Shown here: positions 1-4,142 of the stretch, piece by piece | Position numbering within the stretch: position 1 is the first letter of the stretch | How the letters are laid out: every line of letters starts with the position of its first letter | Source: a virus | Taxonomy: Duplodnaviria; Heunggongvirae; Uroviricota; Caudoviricetes | DNA: 4,142 nucleotides | Reading direction: 5' to 3' (one strand) | IMG/VR virus record: IMGVR_UViG_2663763280_000002 | Span: 1-4,142 of that record | Program-made: the position numbers and the translations under genes | The notes under the pieces: generated by a model | Told to the model about the DNA's origin: nothing | What the model saw: the letters and a program-made list of their open reading frames with translations, nothing else | Database searches by the model: none

Positions 1-1
1 G

Positions 2-433
2 GCTGCCGGAGGCGCTCAACAGGATGACGTGCTGATGTACGTGATGCTGTGGCGCATTGATGCCGGAGATTATGCAGGGGCGCTGGAGATCGGGCGTCAT
101 GCCCTGCGTCATGGCTGGGTGATGCCGCTGGGTAACCGCAACGTGCAGACCGTGCTGGCAGAGGAAATGGCAGACGCGGCGCAGAGCGCAATGCTTGCCG
201 CCACCGGCTTTGATGCCGATCTGTTGCTGCAGACGCTGGAGCTGACAGACGGTCTGGATATGCCGGACCAGTCACGGGCGCGTCTGCATAAAGCGATTGG
301 CGCTGTCCTGAGTGAAAGCAACCCGGCTTCCGCCCTTAATCATCTCAACCATGCGTTACAGCTCGATCCTCGCTGTGGCGTGAAAAAAGACAAACAGCAG
401 CTGGAGCGCAGACTGCGCAATGACAGCCGCTGA
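2..433 (+). CDS. M: Terminase small (endonuclease) subunit, gpM-like, C-terminal part; 5' end lies outside the window
   Basis: The reading frame is open from the window edge with no in-frame stop before TGA 431-433. The first start codon in frame is GTG 29, but the frame continues upstream, so the gene is 5'-truncated by the window. Assignment rests mainly on synteny: it sits immediately upstream of the L-X-lysis-R block, as in the P2 late operon (N-M-L-X). No diagnostic motif was verified. Confidence 0.5.
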   Translation, partial: AAGGAQQDDVLMYVMLWRIDAGDYAGALEIGRHALRHGWVMPLGNRNVQTVLAEEMADAAQSAMLAATGFDADLLLQTLELTDGLDMPDQSRARLHKAIGAVLSESNPASALNHLNHALQLDPRCGVKKDKQQLERRLRNDSR

Positions 434-528
434 CAGAACGTGCCCCCGCGCACGGGCGGCACGGGGTGGCGAAAGGCACTGCCACATCAAAACCCCGTCC
501 ACCGCCCTCTATTTCAGGAGAAAGCAGC

Positions 529-993
529 ATGAAGTTTGTTGCGCCAGAACAGGCACCAGAACAGGCGGAAATCATCAGGAATACGCCGTTCTGGCCTGAT
601 GTGGACCTGTCGGAGTTTCGCAGCGTGATGCGCACTGACGGCACGGTGACGCAGCCGCGTTTAAAGCAGGTTGCGCTGTCGGCAATTTCGGAGGTCAACG
701 CAGAGCTGTATGAGTTTCGCAGACGCCAGCAGATGCTGGGGTATGCCTCGCTGGCAGAAGTTCCGGCGGAACAGCTGGACGGCAAAAGTGAGCGCATTCA
801 GCACTATTTCAACGCGGTTTACTGCTGGGCACGCGCCATGCTCAACGAACGATACCAGGACTATGACGCCACGGCGTCCGGTGTGAAGCGGGGCGAGGAA
901 CTGGCGGAAGCAAGCGGTGATTTGTGGCGTGACGCCCGCTGGGCCATCAGCCGGGTGCAGGATGCGCCGCACTGCACAGTGGAGCTTATCTGA
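529..993 (+). CDS. L: Head completion/stabilization protein, gpL-like
   Basis: ATG 529 is preceded by AGGAG at 516-520 (8-nt spacer). The GTG at 466 used by the ORF track lacks an RBS. Stop TGA 991-993 overlaps the next start by 1 nt (ATG 993). 154 aa. Position between M and X matches the P2 order. Confidence 0.7.
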   Translation: MKFVAPEQAPEQAEIIRNTPFWPDVDLSEFRSVMRTDGTVTQPRLKQVALSAISEVNAELYEFRRRQQMLGYASLAEVPAEQLDGKSERIQHYFNAVYCWARAMLNERYQDYDATASGVKRGEELAEASGDLWRDARWAISRVQDAPHCTVELI

Positions 994-1196
994 TGAAAGT
1001 GCGTGCGCATCAGTATGACACGGTGGACGCGCTTTGCTGGCGTCATTACGGGCGCACGCAGGGGGTCACGGAGCAGGTACTGAAGGCAAATCCGGGGCTT
1101 GCCGAATACGGCCCCTTTTTACCTCACGGGCTGCAGGTGGAGCTGCCGGACATTCCGACCACCACCACCGTGCAGACCGTCCAGCTATGGGACTGA
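993..1196 (+). CDS. X: Phage tail protein X, gpX-like
   Basis: 67 aa ORF with ATG 993 and TGA 1194-1196. Same length class as P2 gpX. The sequence pattern (YGRTQGV...VLKANPGLAE...LPHG..VELPD) matches my recollection of the tail X family. Translationally coupled to L. Confidence 0.75.
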   Translation: MKVRAHQYDTVDALCWRHYGRTQGVTEQVLKANPGLAEYGPFLPHGLQVELPDIPTTTTVQTVQLWD

Positions 1197-1199
1197 ATT

Positions 1200-1415
1200 A
1201 TGACGCTTGAGCGAATCAGCGCCTTTATCACGTATTGCATCGCCGTCGTGCTGGCCTGGCTGGGCGATTTGTCCATCAAGGATGCCTCAACGCTGGGCGG
1301 TCTGATGATTGGTGTACTGATGCTGGCTATCAACTGGTACTACAAACACAAATCCTACCTGCTTCTGCGCGACGGGCAGATCTCGCGGGAGGACTATGAA
1401 TCCATCAATCGTTAA
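1200..1415 (+). CDS. Small class II holin, possible pinholin
   Basis: 71 aa. Two predicted hydrophobic helices (approx. residues 6-22 ISAFITYCIAVVLAWLG and 31-49 TLGGLMIGVLMLAINWYY) followed by a charged C-terminal tail (KHKSYLLLRDGQISREDYESINR). ATG 1200 lies 3 nt after the X stop. The 3' end overlaps the endolysin start by 20 nt. It occupies the holin position of the P2 lysis cassette. Confidence 0.7.
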   Translation: MTLERISAFITYCIAVVLAWLGDLSIKDASTLGGLMIGVLMLAINWYYKHKSYLLLRDGQISREDYESINR

Positions 1416-1908
1416 ACGCTGCCTTGTCGGGGCCGTGCTGGCTATTGCTGCCACGCTGCCGGGTTTTCAGCAGCTTCACACCTCCGTGGAGGGGCTGAAA
1501 CTGATTGCTGATTACGAAGGCTGTCGTCTGCAGCCGTATCAGTGCAGCGCGGGTGTCTGGACCGACGGCATTGGTAATACATCGGGCGTCATTCCCGGCA
1601 AAACAATCACGGAACGACAGGCAGCAGAAGGGCTGATCTCCAACGTGCTGCGTGTGGAGCGGGTACTGGAAAGGTGTGTGAAGCAACTGCCACCACAGAA
1701 GGTGTATGACGCTACGGTGTCGTTTGCCTTCAACGTGGGGACGGGCAATGCCTGCAGCTCCACGCTGGTGAAATTGCTCAATCAGCGGCGCTGGGCGGAT
1801 GCGTGCCGACAGTTGCCGCGCTGGGTTTATGTAAAAGGTGTGTTTAATCAGGGGCTGGATAACCGCCGTGCGCGGGAGATGGCCTGGTGTTTACAGGGAG
1901 CAAACTGA
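1396..1908 (+). CDS. K: SAR-type endolysin, T4-lysozyme-like (GH24) muramidase
   Basis: ATG 1396 is preceded by GGGAGG (1387-1392). 170 aa. After K7-R8 the N-terminus has a weakly hydrophobic Gly/Ala-rich segment (CLVGAVLAIAATLPGF) typical of signal-arrest-release domains. The lysozyme catalytic region is DYEGCRLQPYQCSAGVWTDGIGNT (Glu41 ... Thr56). Cysteines at positions 9, 43 and 50 match the pattern of P1 Lyz-like SAR endolysins. Confidence 0.85.
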   Translation: MNPSIVKRCLVGAVLAIAATLPGFQQLHTSVEGLKLIADYEGCRLQPYQCSAGVWTDGIGNTSGVIPGKTITERQAAEGLISNVLRVERVLERCVKQLPPQKVYDATVSFAFNVGTGNACSSTLVKLLNQRRWADACRQLPRWVYVKGVFNQGLDNRRAREMAWCLQGAN

Positions 1909-1909
1909 A

Positions 1910-2287
1910 ATGAAAAAGAAATTAATCAGCGGACTGTTTCTGATGTTATGGATGGCGCTGTTAATCGCAGCAATGGTGTATCCGCAGGGGATTTTTCCGG
2001 TACTGGCAGCGTCCGGCGTTTGGGTAGCCTGTTTGCTGACATGGGCGGTAATTCCGGTAGCACTGGCTGCGTTAATTAAGAATGGCCCGCTCTGGCAGGA
2101 GTTAAGGGCATCTTTACTGAAGACAATTACCCGAAAAGAAAACGTATTTATCAGTTGGGTGATGCGATTGCTGATTGTTGTAAGTCTCGCCTGGACGGGG
2201 TGGGCTATTACCCTGGTCTTTTATCTACTGACCGTTATTGCCTTCTGGATCACCCGTAATCAGATGGCGCAACAGGTAGCAGCATGA
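1910..2287 (+). CDS. lysA: LysA-like integral membrane protein, lysis-timing accessory
   Basis: ATG 1910 is 1 nt after the endolysin stop (TGA 1906-1908), with GGGAG at 1896-1900 (9-nt spacer). 125 aa with about four predicted transmembrane helices. Located between the endolysin and LysB as in P2. The GTG at 1838 in the ORF track would overlap the endolysin by 70 nt and has no RBS. Confidence 0.6.
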   Translation: MKKKLISGLFLMLWMALLIAAMVYPQGIFPVLAASGVWVACLLTWAVIPVALAALIKNGPLWQELRASLLKTITRKENVFISWVMRLLIVVSLAWTGWAITLVFYLLTVIAFWITRNQMAQQVAA

Positions 2288-2712
2288 ACCGGTTGCTGCT
2301 GGTTGTGCTGGCGTTATTACTGGCGGCGCTGGGCTGGCAGACGTGGCGGCTGGCTGATGCCAGCCAGACCATTAGCACGCAGGCAGACGAGCTGCAGAGC
2401 AAAAGCCAGGCACTGGCAAAGAGCAACAGCCAGCTTATCAGCCTGTCCATTCTGACTGAAACCAATAACCGGGAGCAGGCGCGGCTCTATGCCGAAGCAG
2501 AACAGACCAGCGCGCTGCTGAGACAACGACAACACCGGATCGAGGAACTGAAACGTGAGAACGAGGATTTACGCCGCTGGACTGATACTCCTTTGCCTGC
2601 TGACATTATCCGGCTGCGGGAACGTCCGACGCTCACCGGAGGTGCAGCTTATCGTCAGTGGTTGTCCGCGAGTGACACCGTGTCGGCTGGATCAGGCAGA
2701 GCCGCGCACTAA
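2284..2712 (+). CDS. lysB: LysB, inner-membrane spanin (i-spanin, Rz-like)
   Basis: ATG 2284 overlaps the lysA stop (ATGA). N-terminal transmembrane helix (LLLVVLALLLAALGW) followed by a Q/A/E/R-rich, coiled-coil-like periplasmic region. 142 aa. Contains the out-of-frame start of the lipoprotein gene lysC. Confidence 0.7.
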   Translation: MNRLLLVVLALLLAALGWQTWRLADASQTISTQADELQSKSQALAKSNSQLISLSILTETNNREQARLYAEAEQTSALLRQRQHRIEELKRENEDLRRWTDTPLPADIIRLRERPTLTGGAAYRQWLSASDTVSAGSGRAAH

Positions 2713-2845
2713 CGGTGATCTGAACGCGTTGTTGGATGAAACGGAGGCCGCCTGGGCGGTCTGTGCAGACAAAGTGGACATGATTATTGCGTGTCAGGAG
2801 CAAAACAGTGAACAAACCACAATCCCTGCGCCACGCCCTCAATAA
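2555..2845 (+). CDS. lysC: LysC, outer-membrane lipoprotein spanin (o-spanin, Rz1-like)
   Basis: GTG 2555 with GAGGAA at 2541-2546. Signal peptide MRTRIYAAGLILLCLLTLSG followed by the lipobox Cys21 (L-S-G-C); the residue after the Cys is Gly, consistent with outer-membrane sorting. Pro-rich C-terminus (TTIPAPRPQ). It starts inside lysB in another frame and extends 133 nt past the lysB stop, which is the overlapped spanin architecture. Confidence 0.7.
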   Translation: MRTRIYAAGLILLCLLTLSGCGNVRRSPEVQLIVSGCPRVTPCRLDQAEPRTNGDLNALLDETEAAWAVCADKVDMIIACQEQNSEQTTIPAPRPQ

Positions 2846-3239
2846 AGCGGTGCCTTATGTCCGCAATAACCCGGACAAACTGCATCTGTTTGTGGATAAC
2901 GGTTCGCTGGTTGCCACGGGGGCCAGCTCCATGTCGTGGGAGTACCGTTACACCCTGAACGCGGTGATTGAGGATTTCAGCGGCGACCAGAATCTGCTGA
3001 TGGCCCCGGTTTTGCTGTGGCTGAGGGATAACCAGCCCGATGCCATCAATAACCCGGCGTTACGGGAAAAACTATTCACCTTTGAGGTGGATATTCTGCG
3101 CAACGATGTCTGTGATATCAGCCTGAACCTGCAACTGACGGAGCGTGTGCTGGTCAGCACTGACGGTAGTGTGTCGAGTGTTGAAGCTATAGCGGAACCT
3201 GATGAACCTGAAGAAATGTGGACGGTGAAACGTGGCTGA
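2808..3239 (+). CDS. R: Tail completion protein, gpR-like
   Basis: GTG 2808 with AGGAG at 2796-2800 (7-nt spacer); the TTG at 2787 used by the ORF track is less likely. 143 aa. The N-terminus ([10 protein letters not shown]...[14 protein letters not shown]) resembles P2 tail completion protein R as I recall it. Stop TGA 3237-3239. The last few codons lie at or near the junction with non-phage sequence, so the integrity of the C-terminus is uncertain. Confidence 0.7.
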
Positions 3240-3244
3240 ACTGC

Positions 3245-3511
3245 AGACTGATGCACTCACTGGCGGTCACTGAACAACGCGCCAGCTTCAAAGCGTGGAC
3301 ATTACTGCTGGCAATCAGTGCCTTCTCGTTGTGTCTGCTGGGGACTTTCCTGGTGCGTTCCGGCGTGCTGGTATCGGTACACGCGTTTGCCTCTGATCCG
3401 GCACGCGGTATGTTTATCCTCGCCTTTATGGTACTGGTGATTGGTGGTTCGCTGCTGCTGTTTGCCGCACGTGGACACAAAGTTCGCTCACGCGTAAACA
3501 ATGCGCTGTGG
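3245..3511 (+). pseudogene. ccmF: Internal fragment of a cytochrome c maturation heme lyase (CcmF/NrfE family); no start codon context and no native C-terminus
   Basis: Translation [88 protein letters not shown] matches my recollection of the CcmF/NrfE region just after the Trp-rich WWD domain, including a His that would be the conserved periplasmic His. About 90 of roughly 650 codons are present. The frame ends in KTGT-stop at 3524-3526, which I do not recognise as CcmF. Boundaries are approximate (about 15 nt). Confidence 0.6.
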
Positions 3512-3613
3512 AAAACGGGCACTTAGCGTGGCAAATTGCGCTACCGGGGCACAACGCTGACGCAGCGTAGCGAGCTGTCCTTCCAGTTTTTCCAGCAGCA
3601 GGGCGGTTTTCAC
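3512..3613 (-). pseudogene. priC: 5' fragment (about 34 codons) of a priC-like gene (primosomal replication protein N'')
   Basis: The minus strand reads GTG (3613-3611) then [34 protein letters not shown], preceded by GAGGT about 5 nt upstream and an AT-rich TATCAT-containing region. This resembles the N-terminus of enterobacterial PriC from memory. The frame then runs into the ccmF-like fragment and stops (PQRIVYA-stop). Identification is less certain than for the other fragments. Confidence 0.4.
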
Positions 3614-3897
3614 GATAAGACCTCAATGAAAATGATAATTGTTATGCTAAAGTAGCCACTCTGTAAGCTGACAACACTCAATATGCAACGAATCATTTTA
3701 ATCATCATGTTGAACTGGTACAGGCAACCAGCGGCACGCTGATGATTTTGCGCCATACCGCACCGCTAAGTTCGGCTGATCGCGAAAAACTGGAACGCTT
3801 TTCGCATTCTGAAGGCCTGGATCTGTATCTCGCCCCCGATAGTGAGATACTCGAAACCGTCTCTGGTGAGATGCCCTGGTATGACTCAAACGGGTTT
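3614..3897. other. AT-rich non-coding spacer between the divergent priC-like and rluD-like starts; origin unassigned, possible promoter sequences
   Basis: No recognisable coding signal; the ORFs here are short and unrecognised. Local AT-rich stretch around 3620-3720 (e.g. TATCAT about 25 nt upstream of the minus-strand GTG). This may contain native upstream regions of the flanking fragments, or a further unrecognised fragment. Confidence 0.3.
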
Positions 3898-4002
3898 ATG
3901 GCACAACGAGTACAGCTCACTGCAACGGTGTCCGAAAACCAACTCGGTCAACGCTTAGATCAGGCTTTGGCCGAAATGTTCCCGGATTATTCACGTTCGC
4001 GC
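3898..4002 (+). pseudogene. rluD: 5' fragment (35 codons) of rluD-like 23S rRNA pseudouridine synthase D
   Basis: ATG 3898 followed by [35 protein letters not shown], which matches the N-terminus (S4-like domain) of E. coli-type RluD as I recall it. After codon 35 the frame continues as [16 protein letters not shown]-stop (4051-4053), which is not RluD and corresponds to the antisense of the next fragment. Confidence 0.6.
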
Positions 4003-4142
4003 CAATCGTTCCCTGGCCAGCAATCACTTTCGGATCATCGTAAGGTGGGATAAAAATACGACCTTCCATTTCGACAATTTCGCTCACTTTAGCGATAGTG
4101 TCGTTGAAATTATCACCATGCAGAACGACTTCTGCGGAGTAG
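4003..4142 (-). pseudogene. tdcB: Internal fragment of a PLP-dependent threonine/serine dehydratase (TdcB-like), running off the window end
   Basis: The minus strand from 4141 downward translates to [47 protein letters not shown], which matches my recollection of catabolic threonine dehydratase TdcB (fold-type II PLP enzyme). Homology ends at about 4003, where the rluD-like sequence begins. About 46 codons are present. Confidence 0.6.

Follow-up and report, generated by a model that had tools for sequence, protein, structure and literature searches.

Pinholins open numerous pores of about 2 nm, through which the proton-motive force is lost but a folded cytoplasmic endolysin cannot pass; their genes usually adjoin those of SAR endolysins, enzymes that leave the cytoplasm via Sec, are kept inactive by an N-terminal helix and are freed on depolarisation (PMC6139136, PMC9636201, PMC9025707). 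The pinholin-SAR endolysin paradigm is already well established. Heptameric pores of ~2 nm that depolarise the membrane yet retain a folded soluble endolysin have been shown for S21 (PMC9636201) and, in part, for Hol of phage HP1 (PMC7312051). In S21, the first transmembrane domain (TMD1) has weak hydrophobicity and many small residues; exit of this domain from the membrane is the activating step, an extra N-terminal positive charge blocks it, and a glycine-zipper-like face of TMD2 serves oligomerisation (PMC9025707). Pairing with a SAR endolysin is by itself no proof of a pinholin, since these enzymes also work with canonical holins, as P1 LydA does with Lyz and lambda S with R21 (PMC9025707).

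Among class II holins, Hol of phage HP1 is needed by the phage to lyse its native host and be released, deletion of hol blocks lysis, and its expression causes cell death without lysis and without leakage of beta-galactosidase; it has no dual start, its partner SAR endolysin is 49% identical to P1 Lyz, and its topology was reported as unusual, with several predictors missing the first segment as a TMD (PMC7312051). The pore size of HP1 Hol is not precisely defined by these results, given that the reporter (beta-galactosidase) is very large and the topology unusual. No functional test of a Fels-2-type or other P2-like coliphage orthologue of the holin described below was found in the literature searched. 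The present analysis concerns a 71-aa ORF and its neighbours in a stretch of 4,142 nucleotides (hereafter, the window) from the IMG/VR record IMGVR_UViG_2663763280_000002.

Host prophage and lysis cassette

Bases 1-3247 of the window showed 100% DNA identity to a P2-like prophage carried on the E. coli A28 chromosome (NZ_CP028747.1); identity to many Klebsiella and Escherichia Peduoviridae records was 97-98%. The host element of the 71-aa ORF is recognised by its sequence as a Fels-2-type (P2-like, Peduoviridae) prophage of E. coli, and the gene order of bases 1-3247 is that of the P2 late operon. The C-terminal part of the terminase small subunit gpM (29-433) is followed by gpL (529-993) and by the tail/baseplate protein gpX (993-1196, plus strand; PF05489, 2.2e-34), which lies directly 5' of the holin gene, as X does in the X-Y-K order of the P2 gene map. 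The lysis cassette then comprises, all on the plus strand, the holin gene (1200-1415), a SAR endolysin of the P1 Lyz type (170 aa, 1396-1908; PF00959, 6e-39), a homologue of P2 LysA (125 aa, 1910-2287) and the two spanins, namely LysB, an Rz-like i-spanin (2284-2712; TIGR03495, 6.7e-51; phrog_89), and LysC, an Rz1-like o-spanin lipoprotein whose gene overlaps lysB (2597-2845; NF038368, 1.5e-36; PF23793; RefSeq coordinates). The gpR gene (2808-3239) completes the segment.

In P2, the genes Y and K occupy the same slot between X and lysA/lysB. However, P2 Y, a class I holin of 93 aa, has three TMDs (PMC3091744) and is assigned to phrog_175, whereas the window holin matches phrog_20, and P2 K is a soluble enzyme that lacks the N-terminal TMD of the window endolysin; homology of the window pair to Y and K was therefore rejected. 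As the two pairs are unrelated and share one position, the holin-endolysin module has been swapped in the same P2 slot. The cassettes of 186-type (Eganvirus) phages such as Midge, EtG and vB_YenM_06.16-2 resemble that of the window in the succession of gpX, holin, SAR endolysin, LysA in some, and spanins, and in phage Midge the Center for Phage Technology annotates this layout as 'holin class II / SAR endolysin / putative antiholin / spanins'. The HP1 cassette differs in its location, after the tail tube gene instead of after gpX.

The holin gene

The ORF at 1200-1415 (plus strand) begins with ATG and encodes the 71-aa product MTLERISAFITYCIAVVLAWLGDLSIKDASTLGGLMIGVLMLAINWYYKHKSYLLLRDGQISREDYESINR. 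An identical gene (100% DNA identity) is labelled 'HP1 family phage holin' in RefSeq (WP_001419996.1), and the Fels-2 orthologue (82% identical) is annotated as 'lysis protein; 2 transmembrane domains; putative holin'. The gene is already known, being widespread and named as a holin in hundreds of enterobacterial P2-like prophages, and there is little new in its detection. The length of 71 aa, the segment GGLMIGVLML and the 20-nt overlap between the holin and endolysin genes given in the initial annotation were read from the sequence exactly as described, the overlap (1396-1415) starting at the endolysin ATG at 1396. A Shine-Dalgarno-like GGGAGG was read at 1387-1392 (plus strand), within the holin ORF, and together with the overlap it makes translational coupling of the endolysin to the holin plausible.

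The 71-aa ORF was intact in all 80 loci fetched, and 78 of them kept the identical 20-nt overlap. Homologous proteins formed 146 clusters at 90% identity, a profile search among 50%-identity clusters returned 87 representatives, and a relative was encoded in at least 572 viral contigs. When the gene was compared with three diverged orthologues, substitutions were biased to the third codon position in each case (12/4/20 at positions 1/2/3 against Fels-2, 18/12/37 against ST13phi12.1, and 19/8/29 against the Edwardsiella-like contig L092). The ORF list and the Rfam, promoter and terminator scans contained nothing that competes for 1200-1415, be it a minus-strand ORF, an Rfam family or a regulatory signal.

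Family assignment

The holin scored 33.0 bits (E 5.9e-8, residues 6-55) with PF16080 (Phage_holin_2_3, the HP1 holin family), above the Pfam gathering cut-off of 28.8 bits, and 22.2 bits with PF04971 (phage P21 holin S), just under the cut-off of 26 bits. A precomputed PF16080 match was present in ~110 of the 120 homologous clusters listed, and two intermediate members from viral contigs (L091 and L101) exceeded both Pfam cut-offs. The protein also matched phrog_20 (E 8.9e-26), a family that is matched by S21 (1.1e-32) and HP1 Hol (9.3e-10) as well, and that also takes in the holins of phage Midge (186-type) and of the Pseudomonas podophage Ep4.

BLASTP of the 71-aa holin against HP1 Hol and against S21 gave no pairwise similarity, because the proteins are too short and divergent, and profiles were therefore needed. 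Based on an alignment of 51 sequences spanning the diversity of the family, hhalign gave a probability of 96.6% (E 4.8e-10) with the S21 family over 55 columns that covered both TMDs, and of 97.2% (E 4.6e-11) with the HP1 Hol family, while an alignment of the narrow subfamily reached 57% with the S21 family. The S21 sequence used in these comparisons was confirmed by a tblastn match of 100% in Escherichia phage phi458, and the clusters nearest to it carry PF04971 under the name 'class II holin family protein'. An NCBIfam HMM scan of the holin returned no match at E <= 0.1, so the RefSeq name must stem from a rule other than an NCBIfam HMM.

The matches to PF16080, phrog_20, the RefSeq entry and the hhalign profiles place the 71-aa protein among the class II, two-TMD holins of the HP1 family; holin superfamily II, to which that family belongs, also includes S21. 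The likeness to the S21 class proposed in the initial annotation thus held at the superfamily level (hhalign, 96.6%) and failed at the level of PF04971 membership (22.2 vs. 26 bits). Homology to a canonical large-hole holin family, which had been named as grounds for abandoning that proposal, did not appear: the class I (three-TMD) holin families gave no Pfam or PHROG match to the 71-aa holin.

Protein architecture

The Kyte-Doolittle profile rose into hydrophobic peaks at two places only, residues ~6-22 and ~28-48, and the C-terminus beyond them is charged; the AlphaFold2 model built on the 51-sequence alignment placed helices at residues 3-23, 26-57 and 63-69 (mean pLDDT 73.9). A three-TMD topology, considered as a candidate that would have excluded the pinholin proposal, was rejected, since hydropathy and AlphaFold2 both gave two TM helices; the holin is accordingly modelled as a two-helix hairpin, as first annotated. 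TMD1 spans residues 6-22 (ISAFITYCIAVVLAWLG; 1215-1265, plus strand) and is unusually hydrophobic for the family in terms of its Kyte-Doolittle mean and its Gly/Ala/Ser/Thr fraction. TMD2 spans residues 30-47 (STLGGLMIGVLMLAINWY; 1287-1340, plus strand) and is, as had been noted, glycine-rich, with G33, G34 and G38 in GGLMIG. The G34xxxG38 pair was invariant across 31 subfamily members and gives TMD2 a glycine-zipper-like small-residue face. TMD2 runs into the juxtamembrane motif NWYYK; in the form NWYY[KR]HK this motif was conserved across the 87 representatives, and as [VLI]NWYY[KR]HK, following TMD2, it marks the family as a whole. The KHK...R cluster behind this helix would be cytoplasmic according to the positive-inside rule. 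The N-terminus, MTLER, has a single acidic and a single basic residue, as has the MDK of the active S21-68 form (PMC9025707).

The closest known proteins share different parts of this architecture. S21 (S21-68/S21-71) belongs to the same superfamily, is likewise 71 aa long and has a SAR endolysin partner; in the alignment with the window holin, its D5-K6-I7-S8 falls on E4-R5-I6-S7 (DKIS on ERIS), S44xxxG48 on G34xxxG38, and N55, Y57 and K59 on N45, Y47 and K49. By contrast, the G40 turn of the S21 zipper falls in a three-residue gap of the window holin, which leaves a shorter motif, and the window TMD1 is six residues shorter than that of S21, strongly hydrophobic and not rich in Gly/Ser/Ala/Thr. 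HP1 Hol also carries PF16080 and phrog_20, is small, with two segments and a charged C-terminus, lacks a dual start, and its gene, in a P2-related myovirus, overlaps that of a downstream P1 Lyz-like SAR endolysin (PMC7312051); unlike the window holin, it has 78 aa, a longer helical C-terminal tail and a weaker first segment. The 186-type holins match phrog_20 and have a similarly hydrophobic TMD1, but they are merely 28-38% identical to the window holin (28% in the case of Midge). P1 LydD, a functional analogue, is a small two-TMD pinholin beside the SAR endolysin Lyz, and cannot support the soluble lambda R, yet its gene lies downstream of lyz, both of its termini are highly basic and it has no glycine zipper (PMC9025707).

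Hydrophobicity of TMD1 and start codon

The Kyte-Doolittle mean of the window TMD1 was 2.12 and its Gly/Ala/Ser/Thr fraction 0.35, against 0.49 and 0.65 in S21, 1.44 and 0.47 in HP1 Hol, and 1.02 ± 0.44 and 0.54 in 42 distant relatives, only one of which, a 186-type protein, was as hydrophobic. TMD1 was also more hydrophobic than TMD2, and its Hessa-scale sum was -0.56. Being far more hydrophobic and poor in Gly/Ala/Ser/Thr, TMD1 may not undergo the activation step of S21, and an S21-style exit from the membrane is uncertain in the 71-aa holin. Nevertheless, hydrophobicity does not tell whether TMD1 acts as a SAR domain, as the N-terminal helix of P1 Lyz, a proven SAR domain, is just as hydrophobic (Kyte-Doolittle mean 2.24, Gly/Ala/Ser/Thr fraction 0.47, scored on an N-terminal sequence partly checked against the 1XJT alignment, chain residues 11-113).

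The ORF list and the S21 alignment revealed a single in-frame start and no dual start in the 71-aa holin. Leu3 occupies the position of S21 Met4 in the hhalign alignment, and the ATG that precedes the gene, at 1187, lies in another frame and runs into a stop at 1210. Many of the 186-type relatives begin with MGL[KT]M, an arrangement that may serve as a dual start as in S21; in the window it is out of frame. It is conceivable, if doubtful, that in the Peduoviridae branch formed by the Fels-2-type and 186-type holins TMD1 shifted from an ancestral, weakly hydrophobic SAR-like state (Kyte-Doolittle ~1.0, more than half Gly/Ala/Ser/Thr) to a mean of ~2.0 and that the S21 trigger was lost. Should this be true, the protein would be a stable hairpin with a different activation route, and either timing would perhaps have been passed to a separate antiholin of the LysA type or the lesion would be of a size unlike a pinhole.

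Partner endolysin and LysA homologue

The endolysin has an N-terminal hydrophobic helix (IVKRCLVGAVLAIAATL, ~residues 5-24, Kyte-Doolittle mean 1.95) that contains Cys9, and its closest solved structure is that of full-length P1 Lyz (1XJT, E 5.5e-26). Its block EGCRLQPYQCSAGVWTDGIGNT aligns to EGCRRDPYMCPAGVWTDGIGNT of P1 Lyz, with the E/C/C/T motif conserved at E41, C43, C50 and T56, which we take to be the counterparts of E42, C44, C51 and T57 in P1 Lyz. In P1 Lyz, a disulfide cages the catalytic cysteine, and the cysteine of the SAR helix frees it. The identification of the partner as a SAR endolysin, made initially from the letters of the sequence, is borne out by the N-terminal helix with Cys9 and by P1 Lyz being the best structural relative, and the enzyme is assigned by these sequence features to the P1 Lyz type. 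This disulfide-caged type distinguishes it from the S21 partner, which is of the R21 type.

The protein encoded at 1910-2287 has four TMDs by hydropathy and matched phrog_162 (8e-44), as P2 LysA does (1.8e-67), as well as the NCBIfam family DNZ54_00345. P2 LysA is a four-TMD protein regarded as an antiholin (PMC3091744); it is non-essential and alters lysis timing (P2 record note; also PMC3091744). For the window homologue, a function as antiholin or lysis-timing regulator is putative.

Pairing of holin and endolysin across lineages

A scan of viral contigs with the subfamily alignment yielded only loci ~97% identical or more, which were of no use for co-occurrence, while a second scan seeded with distant members yielded about ten distinct lineages among many repeats. 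In 10 of the 11 distinct lineages examined, the neighbour of the family's holin was a lysozyme with a membrane helix at its N-terminus, and the lysozyme matched PF00959 in all ten. These lineages were the Fels-2 type, ST13-OXA48phi12.1, the Edwardsiella-like contig L092, Yersinia vB_YenM_06.16-2, Erwinia EtG with Escherichia Midge, the P2-like contigs L098/L099/L103, the P2-like contigs L100/L144, HP1, the podophage Ep4, and contig L101. The exception, L091, encodes a soluble endolysin (GH108 + PG_binding_3) and, adjoining the class II holin, a separate protein that matches a 'holin of 3 TMs' family. This second holin is supportive, being what would be expected if the class II protein alone cannot release a soluble enzyme. 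In a sample as small as 11, the lineage-wide pairing with N-terminal-TMD endolysins is supportive but not conclusive.

The LysA gene was absent from ST13phi12.1, YenM06.16-2, L092, L098, L100 and L144, whose cassettes consist of holin, SAR endolysin and spanins only; the class II protein is consequently the only holin candidate in these lineages.

Mode of action and alternative explanations

The 71-aa protein is probably an HP1-family class II holin that acts as a pinholin and depolarises the membrane to activate the SAR endolysin. The initial proposal of a pinholin, made from the sequence only, is supported by profile homology to the S21 and HP1 Hol families and by the genomic context; the small pore size, the depolarisation trigger, the topology and the exit of TMD1 are what we infer for this protein. 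On late expression, the holin would build up in the inner membrane as an N-in/C-in hairpin, while the endolysin would be exported by Sec and remain tethered and inactive via the SAR helix at its N-terminus. At a time that depends on concentration, holin molecules would oligomerise via TMD2 (the G34xxxG38 face and the NWYYK motif), and the oligomers would open small lesions that collapse the proton-motive force. Depolarisation would then release and activate the SAR endolysin, after which the spanins would disrupt the outer membrane.

An unlikely explanation, and the one that survives best among the alternatives, is that the class II holin makes large non-specific holes, the SAR pairing being incidental and TMD1 a stable membrane anchor. 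A TMD1 that exceeds TMD2 in hydrophobicity and lies at the extreme of the family (Kyte-Doolittle 2.12, Hessa sum -0.56) and the single start codon would suit such a protein, as would the service of canonical holins to SAR endolysins and the case of P1 LydA and LydC, which are described as class II-like holins with two TMDs and work with a soluble endolysin (PMC9025707). However, the window holin is homologous to two experimentally studied pinholin families and to no known large-hole holin, and its relatives adjoin N-terminal-TMD endolysins in 10 of 11 lineages, with a 3-TM holin exactly where the endolysin is soluble; moreover, the equal hydrophobicity of the proven P1 Lyz SAR domain (2.24) makes membrane exit of TMD1 possible. 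A variant of this explanation, to which we assign a low probability, keeps the hairpin holin and lets the hydrophobic TMD1 stay in the membrane, with a lesion or trigger unlike that of S21. The pinholin reading is thus retained for a branch that departs from the S21 model in its hydrophobic TMD1 and its lack of a dual start, a departure that bears on the pinholin label itself and on any use of the protein as a depolarising lysis-timing part.

It is very improbable that the 71-aa protein is mainly an antiholin or co-holin and that the four-TMD LysA homologue (1910-2287) is the real lesion former. Two membrane proteins do flank the endolysin, and the family member of L091 coexists with another holin, but P2 LysA is non-essential and affects timing only (P2 record note; PMC3091744), deletion of HP1 hol blocks lysis (PMC7312051), and the six related cassettes without any LysA gene led to the rejection of the LysA homologue as the real holin. 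Virtually no weight can be given to a chance ORF or a non-functional remnant of a degraded prophage, an idea to which the patchwork nature of the window after ~base 3247 might lend itself, but which conservation effectively refutes, given that many genomes carry the ORF intact and identical, its substitutions are skewed to the third codon position, the overlap and the Shine-Dalgarno-like sequence are conserved, the family HMMs match, and the prophage around the identical holin gene is complete in E. coli A28.

Sequence downstream of the prophage segment

The match to the A28 prophage ends at ~base 3247 of the window, and the A28 prophage goes on with gpS. The window instead continues, 3' of ~3247, with short internal pieces of unlinked E. 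coli core genes, namely those for CcmF, PriC (minus strand), RlmD, RluD and TdcB (minus strand). Because it is a patchwork of unlinked core-gene fragments, the part of the window after ~3247 is a composite or an assembly artefact, and the lysis cassette is unaffected by it.

SAR endolysin and its Fels-2 counterpart

On the basis of its sequence, the endolysin encoded at 1396-1908 is a SAR endolysin of the P1 Lyz subtype: its EGC...C...T block (E41, C43, C50 and T56) aligned with the P1 Lyz residues responsible for catalysis and caging. The SAR helix carries a cysteine, Cys9, and in combination with the aligned block this suggests activation by disulfide isomerisation, in contrast to the refolding mechanism of the type described for R21, the SAR endolysin of phage 21. 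In the Fels-2 reference (locus L088, NC_010463, 2397-3286) the endolysin is annotated from a GTG start, with loss of most of the SAR helix, while an ATG upstream of this GTG yields MNPSIVKRCLV..., matching the endolysin of the window. The gene at the LysA position was broken into two short hypothetical ORFs in the same annotation (L088, 2397-3286), and this division may represent a frameshift or a pseudogene.

Variation in cassette composition

The putative antiholin of LysA type is an optional component of the P2-like lysis module, since several related P2-like cassettes (viral loci L089, L084, L092, L098, L100 and L144) had no gene of LysA type separating the endolysin from the i-spanin. A two-holin cassette was found in a viral contig (L091, 458-1811), where a class II holin (PF16080/PF04971) follows a soluble endolysin with GH108 and PG_binding_3 domains and is also preceded by a member of the "holin of 3 TMs" family; by analogy with phage P1, the pair is possibly composed of a pinholin and a canonical holin.

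Holin N-terminus and first transmembrane domain

The N-terminus of the 186-type holin relatives (2195-2416 in both loci L084 and L085) reads MGLKM or MGLTM, a possible dual start similar to that of S21, the phage 21 pinholin. This candidate is created by the overlap between the start of the holin and the conserved C-terminal end of gpX (...LWD*). The window carries the same ATGGGACTGA as these relatives, but its ATG at 1187 is shifted by one base relative to the holin frame, and the reading frame of this ATG terminates at 1210 (MGLNYDA*). In the 51-sequence alignment spanning the diversity of the holin family (A4), TMD1 of Fels-2-type and 186-type holins (1215-1265 in the window) was approximately 1 Kyte-Doolittle unit more hydrophobic than that of the rest of the family, whereas TMD1 was rich in Ser, Thr, Ala and Gly both in S21 and in family members outside these two types.

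Labels in database records and the end of the window

Labels around the holin cassette in homologue records are annotation noise. Holin homologues were labelled "putative secretory protein" in phage KP12 and in several E. coli and Salmonella records, and the JGI label for the holin was "cytosine/uracil/thiamine/allantoin permease". Phage KP12 is placed in the Vequintavirinae, though its sequence is P2-like, and "endolysin" is the label of both P2 LysA and its PHROG, phrog_162.

The window departs from the prophage at about position 3248, where E. coli A28 continues with gpS and the genes of the baseplate. The remaining part (3248-4142) was a mosaic of short internal pieces from unlinked E. coli core genes, with fragments of CcmF (model positions 200-294), RlmD (210-272), the RluD N-terminus (1-35) and, on the minus strand, TdcB (138-169) and the PriC N-terminus. 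This part was matched by 5426 of 5426 E. coli genomes, at 4-6 separate places, and has the appearance of a chimera or construct, or of an artefact of assembly.
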